A stretch of 20,000 nt of DNA from Reclinomonas americana ATCC 50394 (lineage: Eukaryota), in NCBI GenBank assembly GCA_048213135.1, contig PS015299.1:136845-156844 (forward strand). The letters run 5' to 3'. Numbering within the stretch: position 1 is the first letter of the stretch; every line of letters begins with the position of its first letter. The notes under the pieces are model-generated. The model searched no databases. It saw only the letters and a list, made by a program, of their open reading frames with translations, and was not told the origin of the DNA. This document shows positions 3,853-7,741 of the stretch, piece after piece. Made by a program: the position numbers and the translations under genes.

Positions 3853-6800
3853 ATGTCGGTGAGTTGTATTGATTGAGTGGGGGACACTTGTTGTTCTCTC
3901 GCTTCTCTCTGTCTTCTCTCCTCGTCGCTTGTCACTCACTGCCTTGTATGCGACACAGTTCTCTGTGAATGTGAGTGCGGCGCATGATTCGTCGCTGTCG
4001 GTGGTTGTGGAGGGCATGTCGGCCATGTCCACTCTCGCGGACTTGCTGCGCGAGGCCACACGCTTGCTGCGTGAGAAGAGTGGAGATGAGGGGATGGAGA
4101 TTGTGGGGGTGGAGAAGCCGGTACCGTATGACCTGACGCACGCCAGTGGCGTTCCGCTGTGTGCGCTTGGCATTAACTCATCAACTCATCTTGTTGTCCG
4201 TCTGACACTTGGCGTGGCGCTGTCGTCGAGTGGAGGGAGTGAGAGTGGAAGGTGTGTGTTAATGAGTCATCCGCTTTGCATAACATGCAGCTCACTCTCA
4301 TGTCTCCCAGCAGCAACTCGGAGAGAGTGACTCGGTTTGTTCTGCTTGCCTTCGTCCTCCTTCTCTCCTTGCTTGTTCTTCCACTTGATCCGAGTATGTG
4401 CTGACTGTGTTTGTGTGTGCATGCGCAGCATGATCAACTCGCAGCGCGTCAACATGGCCTTTGAGGTGGTGGAGGAGGCCGTGCGTCTGCGCTGTCAACG
4501 CGCACTGGCACAGTTCAGTCGCGATCATCCCGACTTTGATGTGCGGGCGTGGGTGCCGACATTCTCGCCTGCTGGTATGGATGTGGCGGCAGTGAAGGCG
4601 TGGCGAGCGAGACATTCAGTGCCTGGCATTGGATTCGTCAAGCTGCCGAGAGAAGCATGGGCGCATGTGCATGATTGGCACGCTACTTTCGCCGCCAACT
4701 CGGCTGTTGATCCACCGTGCAGTGGTTTGGACATTGGCGATCTCGGCTCCATGTTCTCGTACGGGGCGTTTATTGAGATGGACAGCAGTGACGGTCGGCG
4801 GCAAGTACACGAATTGCTTTTAGTTGTGGCTGAACGACTGGCAATTGAGCAAGCTGTGCAAGTGCGTAATACGTTGGCACACCATCGAGACCAAGCATTG
4901 TGGACGGATGCCACTGTGCAGCAGTACCTTGGTGACCGTGGTGTTTTCCTCTCCGTCCTCTCTCGACTGCAGTTGACGGCTGATGAGCAAGCTCGATTCG
5001 CTGCGCGTATCGTTGAGGCGCGCCACGTTCAGCACGTCGTCAGCACATTTGATGAGCGGCTGCATCGACTGGCTGTGCGTGAGGTCTCCTTCTACCAATA
5101 CGACGAGAGTGTGCGTAAGGACATGCAGATGTATGTGCCACTGCTGTGTTCACGTGATCATGACGTCTCATCGAGAGAGAAGATGACGGATCTGTTGACG
5201 GAGGTGAATATTTTCCTCTCCGACTCCAATACCAGTCAGCATGTGCTGGTGCTCTTCGGCAACAGTGGCGCCGGCAAGACCACCACCATGTCGGTGTTGG
5301 CTGAGCGAGCATGGCGACAGTGGCAGACGAGAGAGAGCAGACGAGTGCCTGTGCGTGTGCCTCTTGGTGCACTGCGCAATGCCGATGAGCGGCTGTTGGA
5401 GGAGGCACTGGATCGATTGTCGCCCGAGTTGGGATTGGAGTCGGATGTGCGACGACTGAAGGAGGAGCCACTGCTGTTGTTGCTTGACGGGTACGACGAG
5501 CTGTACCGTGGTGTGAATCTGTTTGTGAAGAACCAGCTGGATGTGTGTCACGATGTGAAGGTGATTATCACATGTCGAGGTGATTACGCACTGACGGCTC
5601 TGGGTGGTGTGACGCAGTATCGACGGTATTTTGCACCGGATGCACGAGGACAGTTGTGCATGCAGCAGCTGACGGAGCGACACATTGCTCCGTTCAACAA
5701 GGAGCAGATTGAGGAGTATATTGGGCGACTGGTGCAAGTTGGTTGTGATGACGGAGAAGTGCGATGGTCAACTGCCGAAGAGTACTTTTATGCACTGAAA
5801 AGGGTGCACGGACTTGATGCACTGGTATCGAATCCATTCCTGTTGGCAGTGGTGGCTCGTGTGCTGCCGCAGCTGGTGGCTCGTGGTGTGCAGCGACCGA
5901 CTCGGTGTGATGTGTTTGACCGATTCATTCGACAGTGGATTGAGAGGGAGCAGGAGAGGCAGACGCGTCTCGGTGTGGAGCTTGTGCCGAGTGAGGAGAC
6001 GTGTCTCGCATTCTGTGAGGGTCTGGCGCGGTTGATGCATGAGAGGAATGTGGTGCGAGTGTCTGTGATTGAGAGTCAATCAAGTGAGGATCACTTTGGT
6101 GGTGCGCCACTTGCCTTGCGACAAGTGAAAGAGGGACCATTTTACAAGTTCCTCGGGCAGAAGAACCAGCATGTGCGAGTGTGCTGTCCGATTTTGCGAC
6201 GGTATGGGACAACGCAGTGGGGATTCGTACATCTATCGCTGCTGGAGCACTGCGTGGCACGACATGTGTTTGCGTGGGACACGTGGGATGAGGAGAGGAG
6301 ATTGACGATGCAGGATGTGCGGCAGCATGTGCTGGCTGTCCGATTGCTGAATGATCGACCGTCGTTGGTGGAGCAGATGGCCGAGGTGGTGCGCCGATCT
6401 CCTGCGTTGCAAGCGAGACTGTGGGAGGTGATTGAGATGTCGCGTGAGGTGGATGAGGAGCGAGTGGTGACGGCGGCTTCGAATGCAGCGACGGTGTTGT
6501 GTGTGGCACAAGTGTCGTTCAGTGGACGAGATTTGTCGGGTGTGCGAGTGAGGGGTGCGGATTTGAGGGATGCGGTGATGCACAGGACGGTGTGGAGGGG
6601 AGCGGACTTGCGAGGGGTGAATTTGTGCATGGCGTATGCGAGGGAGGCGGATTTCAGGGGGGTGGATGTGACGGGTGTGAAGTGGCCACGGAAGCCGCTG
6701 GAAGGACACATGGATTGGGTGCGTGCAGTGGCAGTGACACCCGATGGGCAGCACGCTGTGAGTGGCAGTTGGGACAAGACTGTACGGGTGTGGTCGGTGG

Positions 6801-7741
6801 TACGTGGCGAGAAGGTGCGTCGACTGGAAGGGCACACAAGTAAGGTGCTTGCAGTGGCAGTGACACCCGATGGCCAGCACATTGTGAGTGGCAGTGGGGA
6901 CGAGACTGTACGTGTGTGGTCGGTGGCAAATGGCGAGGAGGTGCGCCGACTGGAAGGCCACACAGAATGGGTGCTTGCAGTGACAGTGACACCCGATGGC
7001 CAGCACGTTGTGAGTGGCAGTAATGACAAGACTGTGCGGGTGTGGTCGGTGGCAAGTGGCGGGGAGGTGCGCCGACTGGAAGGCCACACGATGGCGGTGA
7101 ATGCCGTGGCAGTGACACCCGATGGCCAGCACATTATAAGTGGCAGTGGAGACAAGACTGTACGGATGTGGTCGGTGGCAAGTGGTGAGGAGGTGCGCCG
7201 ACTGGAAGGCCACACGAATGTGGTGATTGCAGTTGCAGTAACATTCGATGGCCAGTACATTGTTAGTGGCAGTTATGACAGTACTGTACGGGTGTGGTCG
7301 GTGGCAAGTGGCGAGGAGGTGCGCAGACTGGAGGGCCACATGAGTGGGGTATGGGCAGTGGCAGTCACTCCAGATGGCCAGCACATTGTGAGTGGCAGTG
7401 GGGACTATACTATACGGGTGTGGTCCATGGCAAGTGGTGAGGAGGTGCGCCGACTGGAAGGCCACACGCAAATGGTGTGTGCGGTGGCAGTGACACCCGA
7501 TGGCCAGCACATTGTTAGTGGCAGTTATGACAATACTGTACGGGTGTGGTCGGTAACAAGTGACGAGGAGGTGCGCCGACTGGATGGCCACAGGAGAGCG
7601 GTGTTTGCAGTGGCAGCGACTCCTGATGGCCAGCACATTGATCCACGTGACAAGGAGATGCTACATGTGCGCCGTCGTGAAGGACTACTCGAGCGCATTT
7701 TAGGTTCTTTCCGTCCTGATTTCACCGATTTAGTTCTGTGA
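3853..7741 (+). CDS. NLR/STAND-like receptor copy 1: Ubl, HEPN-like, NACHT, pentapeptide, WD40; exons 3853-3858, 3959-4251, 4429-7741; 1203 aa
   Basis: ATG TCG|gtgagt intron 3859-3958 (ctcac branch, cacag, phase 0); AG|gtgtgt intron 4252-4428 (ctgac branch, cgcag, phase 2). Both introns sit at the same positions and phases in copy 2. Walker A GNSGAGKT 5258-5281, Walker B LLLLLDGYDE 5471-5500, sensor-1 KVIITCR, NPFLL and WHD-type FVHLSLLEH motifs are present. Ends at TGA 7739-7741. Confidence 0.9.
3959..4251 (+). other. Exon 2 encoding a ubiquitin-like (beta-grasp/UBX-like) N-terminal domain
   Basis: FSVNVSAA..SLSVVVEG.MSAMSTLADLLREATRLL..MEIVGV.KPVPYDL..GVPLCALGINSSTHLVVRL follows the beta-beta-alpha-beta-...-'LxxLGI'-beta pattern of ubiquitin-like folds. 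Conserved in copy 2 at 12112-12410. Pattern recognition only. Confidence 0.6.
4430..4990 (+). other. Putative HEPN-family RNase domain
   Basis: R-x4-H motif RNTLAH at 4865-4882, preceded by helical AIEQAVQV and upstream LDIGDLGSMF..F. Copy 2 keeps RNEFAH (12986-13003) and FDTTALHSIM despite low surrounding identity. Boundaries are approximate. Confidence 0.65.
5240..6260 (+). other. NACHT NTPase module (NBD-HD1-WHD), copy 1
   Basis: VLVLFGNSGAGKT, LLLLLDGYDE, VIITCR, IAPFNKEQIEEYI, NPFLL and FVHLSLLEH occur in canonical order and spacing. Confidence 0.92.
6518..6685 (+). repeat. Pentapeptide repeat (A-D/N-L-x-x type) linker, copy 1
   Basis: FSGRDLSGVRVRGADLRDAVMHRTVWRGADLRGVNLCMAYAREADFRGVDVTGVKW shows 5-residue periodicity. 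Confidence 0.9.
6698..7639 (+). repeat. WD40 array, 7 full 126-bp (42-aa) units plus a partial eighth
   Basis: Units start at 6698, 6824, 6950, 7076, 7202, 7328, 7454 and 7580. Consensus LEGHTxxVxAVAVTPDGQHIVSGSxDxTVRVWSVASGEEVRR. Confidence 0.97.

Follow-up and report, generated by a model that had tools for sequence, protein, structure and literature searches.

A tandem NACHT-pentapeptide-WD40 gene pair in Reclinomonas americana whose intact copy probably carries a divergent HEPN head

The 20,000-nucleotide (nt) stretch of Reclinomonas americana ATCC 50394 DNA analyzed here (contig PS015299.1, forward-strand positions 136,845 to 156,844; hereafter, the window) contains two tandem, same-orientation copies of an 8.15-kb unit. 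Each unit has one long plus-strand open reading frame (ORF). The gene in copy A spans 3853-7741, and its ORF runs from stop to stop over 4331-7741; the gene in copy B spans 12004-16276, and its ORF occupies 12788-16276. Self-BLAST of the window aligns 789-4553 with 8972-12708 at 84.3% identity and 4901-7640 with 13016-15767 at 86.2%. Copy A encodes a small domain on an upstream exon, a predicted all-alpha head, a NACHT nucleoside triphosphatase (NTPase), a pentapeptide-repeat segment, and a WD40 array. We give somewhat better than an even chance to the reading that copy A is an intact three-exon gene for a eukaryotic receptor of the STAND (signal transduction ATPase with numerous domains) or NOD-like receptor (NLR) type, in which a HEPN effector, a NACHT switch, and a WD40 sensor would be joined in one chain.

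The model for copy A, on the plus strand throughout, begins with a 6-nt exon of two codons, ATG TCG (3853-3858), which is followed directly by a GTGAGT donor. An in-frame TGA lies 24 nt upstream of this ATG (3829-3831), and the 12-mer ATGTCGGTGAGT at the start of exon 1 is identical in copy B, at 12004. Intron 1 (3859-3958) is a GT-AG intron of 100 nt with a pyrimidine-rich 3' part (donor TCG/GTGAGT, acceptor CACAG/TTC); its counterpart in copy B measures 102 nt and is 88% identical, with two 1-nt gaps. Exon 2 (3959-4251; 293 nt, or 97 codons plus 2 nt) encodes the small domain. Intron 2 (4252-4428; 177 nt, GT-AG, donor AAG/GTGTGT, acceptor CGCAG/C) contains one in-frame TGA (4328-4330) and corresponds to 173 nt in copy B, at 82.6% identity with 13 small gaps. 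Exon 3 (4429-7741) contributes 1 nt that finishes a serine codon and then 1,103 codons from ATG 4430, from which its residues are numbered below, up to the stop at 7739-7741. Spliced together, the exons give a coding sequence of 3,612 nt for 1,203 amino acids (aa) with no internal stop. A preliminary description of this DNA had joined the 6-nt start exon and exon 2 to the ORF in just this way, and its exon and intron coordinates proved exact. It had also called the introns conserved, which is true in the sense that both stand at the same places in the tandem paralog at 12004-16276 (exon 1 at 12004-12009, exon 2 at 12112-12410, and exon 3 from 12584), with both donors and both acceptors kept, and in that sense only.

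Coding potential was assessed from the proportions of nonsynonymous (pN) and synonymous (pS) differences between copies A and B. Exon 2 has a pN/pS of 0.35 to 0.37 in frame 0, with no stops; its other two frames give 1.0 to 2.1, with four to six stops each, and the introns and upstream DNA give 0.6 to 1.5 (for the pseudo-frames of intron 1, 0.6 to 1.1, with one stop-containing codon pair per frame). The net indel between the copies of exon 2 is 6 nt, and the exon is open in both. Its first 19 codons, which show three synonymous and no nonsynonymous differences, precede any internal ATG and are therefore translatable only from the 6-nt exon 1. Read-through of the TGA in place of splicing intron 2 was considered and rejected, given that it would break the frame in copy B, where the 173 nt are not a multiple of three. 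Because splicing holds the phase in both copies and read-through does so only in A, the three-exon model is preferred. We accept it as the best gene model, and from the sequence we infer that splicing occurs in vivo. Retention of intron 2 in copy A, where its length is a multiple of three, would yield a short product ending at the TGA at 4328-4330.

The central part of the protein can be assigned with certainty. The NACHT core (exon-3 aa 272-387; 5243-5590) matches PF05729 at 33.5 bits (cut-off, 26.7). Walker A motifs take the form GxxGxGK[ST] and Walker B motifs the form hhhhDGxDE; here they read GNSGAGKT (aa 277-284; 5258-5281) and, as a Walker B-like motif, LLLLLDGYDE (aa 348-357; 5471-5500), with VIITCR farther along the core (5561-5578). 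A NACHT-associated helical region (5591-6511), for which no separate Pfam family is listed and which is collinear with a protein of Linnemannia zychae, leads up to a pentapeptide-repeat segment of about 11 pentads (6512-6685), which matches PF00805 in two stretches at 31.6 bits (cut-off, 20.2). The NCBIfam MfpA/Qnr-type pentapeptide models match at E values of 6e-6 to 1e-3, far under their full-length cut-offs. From the pre-NACHT region through the pentapeptide segment, pN/pS between the copies is 0.22 over 556 codons. The RNxxAH sequence, NACHT motifs, pentapeptide repeats, and WD40 array named in the preliminary description are thus all present, the NACHT and pentapeptide families above their Pfam cut-offs.

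From about exon-3 aa 208 to its end, copy A is collinear with the Linnemannia zychae protein (P0001) at 27% identity over 919 columns (E = 5e-90), and the Walker A and Walker B-like motifs are unchanged in the alignment of the two. A profile search with this NACHT-pentapeptide-WD40 portion, which we call the chassis, found 17 longer proteins at E ≤ 1e-5 among 7,999 scored candidates. The best four matches (P0006 to P0009) have E values of 1.7e-86 to 1.5e-90 and identities of 28 to 33%; P0008 belongs to Entomortierella parvispora and P0009 to a metagenome-assembled genome (MAG) labeled Glomeribacter, a name used for bacterial endosymbionts of Mucoromycota fungi. The presence of P0009 in that MAG could reflect host contamination or gene transfer; by eye, its N-terminus resembles those of P0006 and P0007. 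The weaker matches are bacterial (Trebonia P0012, Minicystis P0014, and metagenomes), with trypsin-like peptidase and metallophosphatase families among their precomputed Pfam assignments. When the 22 chassis relatives retrieved were searched with the head of copy A, their N-termini gave no match to it (best E value in that 22-protein set, 0.13). Since the relatives' N-termini are unrelated to the head, the NACHT-pentapeptide-WD40 core is taken to be an existing chassis with exchangeable heads. A scan of genome contigs added five weak bacterial NACHT loci, which were uninformative, a metagenome scan gave 215 pattern matches and no relatives among them, and an exact match to the ORF was absent from a collection of 15 billion.

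The C-terminal sensor of copy A comprises seven complete 42-aa WD40 units of high internal conservation (6698-7579), followed by a truncated eighth unit and a C-terminal tail conserved in copy B (7580-7738). PF00400 recognizes seven stretches in copy A (E = 4.4e-86) and 11 in copy B (E = 7.6e-138). The repeating unit is 126 nt long, with 83 to 86% matches between units, and copy A contains 7.3 tandem copies at 83%. Counted by unit, copy A thus has seven full ones plus the shortened eighth (about 7.5) and copy B has 11. The eighth unit of copy A (7580-7645, against 16140-16210 in B) is 30 nt shorter, in frame, and diverged; the last unit of copy B is complete. Both copies retain the tail EGLLERILGSF.PDFTDLVL. 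Of the 42 unit positions, 19 do not vary across the 18 full units of the two copies, including His4, Ser22/24, Asp26, and Trp32, and positions 6, 7, 9, 25, and 27 carry 10, 9, 10, 7, and 6 different residues, respectively. Positions 7, 9, and 25 correspond to the hotspots known from the top face of WD40 blades. At the variable set pN/pS is 1.48, compared with 0.24 elsewhere in the units, a crude test in which the former value is inflated by the post hoc choice of positions.

Between exon 2 and the chassis lies a predicted all-alpha N-terminal domain (exon-3 aa 1-191; 4430-5002), which we judge to be, probably, a divergent HEPN domain of the Swt1-like clade. In the sections of the literature used here and below, the HEPN motif is defined as R-x4-6-H, usually with Asn after the Arg (PMC3710099 and PMC9646362), and is placed at the end of helix 3 (Anantharaman et al., PMC3710099). 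Both copies contain a motif of exactly this kind, RNTLAH in copy A (aa 146-151; 4865-4882) and RNEFAH in copy B. Although the head cores of the two copies are only 52% identical, four motif residues (R, N, A, and H) are unchanged between them, as is the Asp of the D..L helix ahead of the motif. The nearest named ESM clusters to the head are HEPN_Swt1 (0.80) and HEPN_DZIP3 (0.79). Searched against Pfam, the head of copy B gives HEPN_Swt1 at an E value of 0.0089 and 16.7 bits (cut-off, 27.5) and HEPN_RiboL-PSP at 0.16, in the motif helix only. The gathering score of PF18731 (HEPN_Swt1) is reached by neither copy, so that the head cannot formally be assigned to any of the HEPN families in Pfam, and PF18738 (DZIP3/hRUL138-like HEPN) gives no match at E ≤ 10 in either.

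Profile-profile alignment with hhalign goes further. The A and B heads, aligned with each other, were compared with a HEPN_Swt1 profile made in house from 35 of 42 PF18731 stretches from 802 bacterial genomes (over the cut-off in 12 of 401 and 30 of 401), a profile in which one subfamily is dominant. The local alignment scored 30.0 (E = 9.8e-5), which none of 200 column shuffles reached (maximum, 18.7); the reversed alignment scored 13.4 and 14 other segments of the same protein no more than 14.2. The global alignment of aa 1-191 with the whole profile scored 22.9. None of 150 shuffles that preserved the motif attained this value (median, 4.2; maximum, 22.1), nor did any of 220 natural 191-aa windows (maximum, 11.6), and the alignment is collinear through helix 1 and its Trp, the D..L helix, the motif helix, and helix 4. 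Residues 1-45 of the head scored 16.1 on their own, above all 150 shuffles (maximum, 15.6).

Several results weigh against reading copy A as a working receptor with a HEPN effector; they concern the head, transcription, and the state of copy B. Exon-3 aa 1-250 of copy A has no Pfam match at E ≤ 10. A phmmer search of PDB sequences with the head returned no matches, a PDB profile search returned two irrelevant ones (E > 1), and no relatives of the head were found among 1,835,955,588 representatives. The local hhalign signal comes solely from 16 columns around ER..RNxxAH: when these are kept and the rest is shuffled, the real local score is reached in 49 of 150 cases, and when they are deleted the score is 13.8. 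The AlphaFold2 (AF2) model of the head, built with no relatives, is all-alpha with the motif ending a helix at 120-153, but its mean predicted local distance difference test (pLDDT) value is just 36.5. As a query of such low confidence it gives generic matches only, with none at E ≤ 0.001 in Foldseek and a best Z score of 6.6 in VIA.

The silence of the curated models on copy A, the confinement of the local profile signal to the motif, and the low confidence of the fold models would all be expected if the receptor chassis were real and the head were not a nuclease at all but a lineage-specific helical adaptor or signaling domain, or else an inactive HEPN relic, with output passing through homotypic interactions. 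Several of the HEPN versions tabulated by Anantharaman et al. are inactive (PMC3710099), and no part of the gene differs more between the copies than the head core (pS 0.63, pN 0.30). We nonetheless consider this alternative unlikely. It does not sit well with the invariance of the motif R, N, and H and of the Asp in the preceding helix between copies that are otherwise 52% identical, nor with a global HEPN_Swt1 alignment that surpasses both the motif-preserving shuffles (0/150) and the natural windows (0/220).

The exon 2 product is harder to place. The ubiquitin-like (Ubl) label attached to it in the preliminary description was not confirmed and survives as a lead only: neither copy of exon 2 matches any Pfam family at E ≤ 10, PF00240 and its ubiquitin-like relatives included. 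Its ESM neighbors at 0.87 to 0.89 include ubiquitin/Rad60-SLD clusters, and the top three, at 0.90 to 0.91, are unnamed. The AF2 model has strands at 3-8 and 12-17, a helix at 24-41, a strand at 46-52, a short helix, and a strand at 78-86, at low confidence (pLDDT, 44.4; predicted template modeling score, 0.38); used as a query with that confidence, it gives only generic matches (none at E ≤ 0.001 in Foldseek; best VIA Z score, 4.4). The matches to the two models, head and exon 2, are small alpha/beta or helical structures; HEPN and ubiquitin-like chains are absent from them, which carries no weight with models of this quality. In hhalign, a profile of five ubiquitins gave no signal, scoring 12.2 locally, which 13 of 150 shuffles reached, and a profile of four bacterial DUF2604 Ubls scored 15.7, which 1 of 100 shuffles reached, a marginal signal that covers the last 21 residues of the exon 2 product, LCALGINSSTHLVVRLTLGVA. 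Both profiles are narrow, such that DUF2604 and ubiquitin themselves score just 18.0 against each other. A Gly-Gly at the position of the ubiquitin C-terminus is absent from the exon 2 product. We regard a beta-grasp fold as plausible, rather better supported than not, and a role for the domain in regulation or docking is a guess.

That exon 2 matches no recognized family also bears on where translation starts. Exons 1 and 2 might lie outside the main product, with initiation at ATG 4430; the upstream piece would then be a small gene of its own, an alternative first exon, or a remnant. A start at ATG 4430 opens a complete 1,103-aa HEPN-NACHT-pentapeptide-WD40 frame, and the HEPN_Swt1 profile, which consists of bacterial domains, aligns from exon-3 residue 1. 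Moreover, the junctions are without RNA support, as none of the four RNA runs (4/4) yielded a read, although these runs may lack the source organism and thus provide no test of expression or splicing. What makes such a start improbable, in our estimate, is that exon 2 is under purifying selection in the very frame that splicing keeps in phase in both copies, across introns of 177 and 173 nt, that both donors and both acceptors are conserved, and that the unspliced exon 2 frame meets the stop at 4328-4330. The three-exon model is therefore retained for copy A.

Copy B differs from copy A in the condition of its head, which is broken. Compared with copy A it has a gap of 22 nt that puts the sequence out of frame; the ATG frame first meets a stop at 12720, a TAG stands at 12785-12787 just before the long ORF at 12788, and the spliced frame ends at residue 148. 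The interruption could mark a pseudogene, stem from an assembly error, or reflect an extra intron. An extra intron that would rescue copy B (e.g., 12696-12787) is possible on paper, but it has a weak donor and is unsupported, and it was set aside. Because the effector domain of copy B is broken, decay may be under way in at least some of the array. Extending this to the whole array, which would then be a decaying, unexpressed pseudogene cluster with no present function, seems to us quite improbable. The frame break and in-frame stop in copy B, the truncated eighth WD40 unit of copy A, and the RNA runs with zero reads (which are no test) are compatible with decay, but copy A is open across 3,612 nt, its pN/pS is 0.22 over the 556 codons given above, and the structural WD40 residues (H4, S22/S24, D26, and W32) are invariant in 18 of 18 units.

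Divergence between the copies is distributed unevenly. Against a background identity of 79 to 96% (upstream noncoding DNA, 79 to 88%), three coding stretches stand out as diverged, namely, 4080-4169 in exon 2 (66%), 4620-4889 in the head core (50 to 58%), and 6060-6149 (70%). The head core has a pS of 0.63 and a pN of 0.30, versus 0.29 and 0.064 for the NACHT-to-pentapeptide part. This raised divergence suggests that the head core is an older or exchanged cassette or that it has undergone strong diversification.

The remainder of the window adds little in the way of genes. No further convincing gene was found in it, and Rfam gave no matches. Outside the ORF, each unit is low-complexity DNA, rich in purines or pyrimidines and containing microsatellites. 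GA/TC and CA repeats abound among those of the spacers, which show a strong purine skew on the plus strand, and the spacer between the copies contains two 20-N scaffold gaps (8891-8910 and 9992-10011). In the self-BLAST, window positions 1-827 match 7994-8793, just 3' of the copy A stop, at 81.5%. Because the start of the window thus resembles the region 3' of copy A, the array probably extends upstream by at least one further unit. On the other side, similarity following copy B stops near 16488.

The preliminary description saw in copy A a self-contained sensor, switch, and effector. This remains a reasonable view, firm as to the NACHT, pentapeptide, and WD40 parts and only probable as to the HEPN head, for which the grounds are the profile alignment, the sub-threshold Pfam match of copy B, and the ESM neighbors. 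In such a receptor, the WD40 propeller would serve as the ligand sensor, and binding of a ligand to its variable top face would release the NACHT module, to which the propeller would be joined by a short pentapeptide beta-helix. The NACHT NTPase would be the switch, oligomerizing upon nucleotide exchange after ligand binding. Oligomerization would gather the N-terminal HEPN domains, so that paired R-x4-H sites (R146, N147, and H151 of exon 3) could form an RNase, and cleavage of RNA would lead to growth arrest, death, or an antiviral effect. The exon 2 domain, possibly a beta-grasp, may cap the effector. Everything in this scheme beyond the presence of the domains we infer from the analysis, including the HEPN fold, dimerization, RNase activity, and an immune or allorecognition role.

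A more far-reaching version can be offered tentatively, as a possibility to which we assign clearly less than an even chance. Here the head would be a sequence-orphan RNase of the Swt1 HEPN type, capped by a beta-grasp domain and mounted on the chassis found also in Mortierellomycota and bacteria, and the proteins would form an NLR-type family proper to a eukaryote that is neither an animal nor a dikaryan fungus. Its sensor would be shuffled in the style of HET-E, and its head would be a diversifying or exchangeable cassette. If this is true, effector diversification, besides sensor diversification, would belong to the arms race.

Lastly, copy A might act in housekeeping or regulation as a STAND scaffold rather than as a conflict or immune receptor; NACHT-WD40 proteins with nonimmune roles exist. 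This is improbable in view of the tandem duplication, the 7.5 versus 11 units, the hypervariable surface positions, and the effector-type head, a pattern shared with fungal allorecognition NLRs (PMC1805685, in the part used here).

The preliminary description did not recognize the architecture as a described one, and on this point it has to be revised. HEPN before NACHT, sometimes with WD40, tetratricopeptide repeats (TPR), or leucine-rich repeats (LRR), has been published from cnidarians, molluscs, cephalochordates, and bacteria (PMC3710099, PMC9646362, and PMC8260672, in their relevant sections), so that, at the level of the architecture class, copy A belongs to something already described. 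DZIP3-like HEPN domains are fused to NACHT, LRR, CARD, and DEATH domains and are expanded in Nematostella, oyster, and Capsaspora, and the HEPN domain of CXorf38, of the Swt1 clade, is fused to NACHT in cephalochordates and cnidarians (PMC3710099). In the pearl oyster, HEPN-NACHT proteins number more than 50 and some NACHT proteins have WD40 or TPR (PMC9646362), and anthozoans have 17 to 83 HEPN-NACHT proteins per species (PMC8260672). As to narrower combinations, our literature searches turned up no account of Ubl-HEPN-NACHT or NACHT-pentapeptide-WD40 in its own right, although the supplementary tables of PMC8260672 and PMC9646362 may list closer ones. The terms HEPN, pentapeptide, and ubiquitin do not occur in PMC4986451, nor do HEPN and pentapeptide in PMC10197012.

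With the animal HEPN-NACHT proteins, both the DZIP3/hRUL138-like ones of cnidarians and bivalves and those of the CXorf38/Swt1 clade, copy A shares an N-terminal, probably HEPN-type domain placed before NACHT, with Rx4H and Asn after the Arg. Some of the animal proteins likewise have C-terminal WD40, TPR, or LRR, and they form large lineage-specific tandem families (PMC3710099, PMC9646362, and PMC8260672, within the same sections). Copy A differs from them in that its head falls below the PF18738 and PF18731 cut-offs and has no detected sequence relatives, in that it adds the exon 2 domain, a pentapeptide segment between NACHT and WD40, and highly conserved WD40 units, and in that its NACHT-to-WD40 part is nearest to fungal and bacterial proteins rather than to those of animals. 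The bacterial HEPN-STAND proteins, in which Swt1-clade HEPN domains are fused to STAND ATPases, TPR, and S1, offer a second parallel, having an N-terminal Swt1-clade HEPN, a STAND NTPase, and a repeat sensor (PMC3710099, in the sections used), and the head of copy A aligns to the bacterial PF18731 profile. Unlike them, copy A is eukaryotic and has introns, a NACHT rather than another STAND clade, and a WD40 sensor.

The chassis and the sensor point to still other systems. Proteins of Mortierellomycota (Linnemannia zychae P0001 and Entomortierella parvispora P0008), the Glomeribacter MAG protein, and bacterial NACHT-pentapeptide-WD40 proteins are collinear with copy A from the pre-NACHT linker through the WD40 array, whereas their N-termini are unrelated to its head, one being ARM-like and one without a family; by eye, the WD40 repeats of P0001 seem far less alike among themselves than those of copy A. 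The sensor instead recalls HET-E, HET-D, and HET-R of Podospora and the HNWD/NWD proteins, with which copy A shares NACHT, highly similar WD40 units that change in number, and a few variable surface positions (five here, by the crude post hoc test above). In Podospora het-d and het-e, diversifying selection acts on four codon positions of the interaction surface, and the units show concerted evolution (PMC1805685, in the part used). This likeness lies in the sensor only: the 18 Pfam families listed for copy A aa 1-760 at E ≤ 10 do not include HET, the effector of copy A is HEPN-like, and copy A has a pentapeptide segment.

Should the head prove to be an active RNase that NACHT oligomerization triggers, copy A would provide a compact, single-chain sensor-switch-nuclease from outside the animals, whose own HEPN-NACHT proteins are abundant and, as far as the cited parts of these papers show, functionally untested. 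The tandem pair, in which one head is intact and the other broken, gives experiments an obvious place to begin. The fungal strategy of high internal conservation among repeats is seen here on a different chassis, and the NACHT-pentapeptide-WD40 core, found in bacteria as well, ties a eukaryotic receptor to them, a link relevant to how NLR-like receptors were assembled and exchanged. Judged from the sequence, then, the architecture class is known and what is new is the particular build, in which an apparently orphan Swt1-like head and the exon 2 domain are set on a chassis otherwise seen in Mortierellomycota and bacteria and combined with repeats in the style of HET-E.

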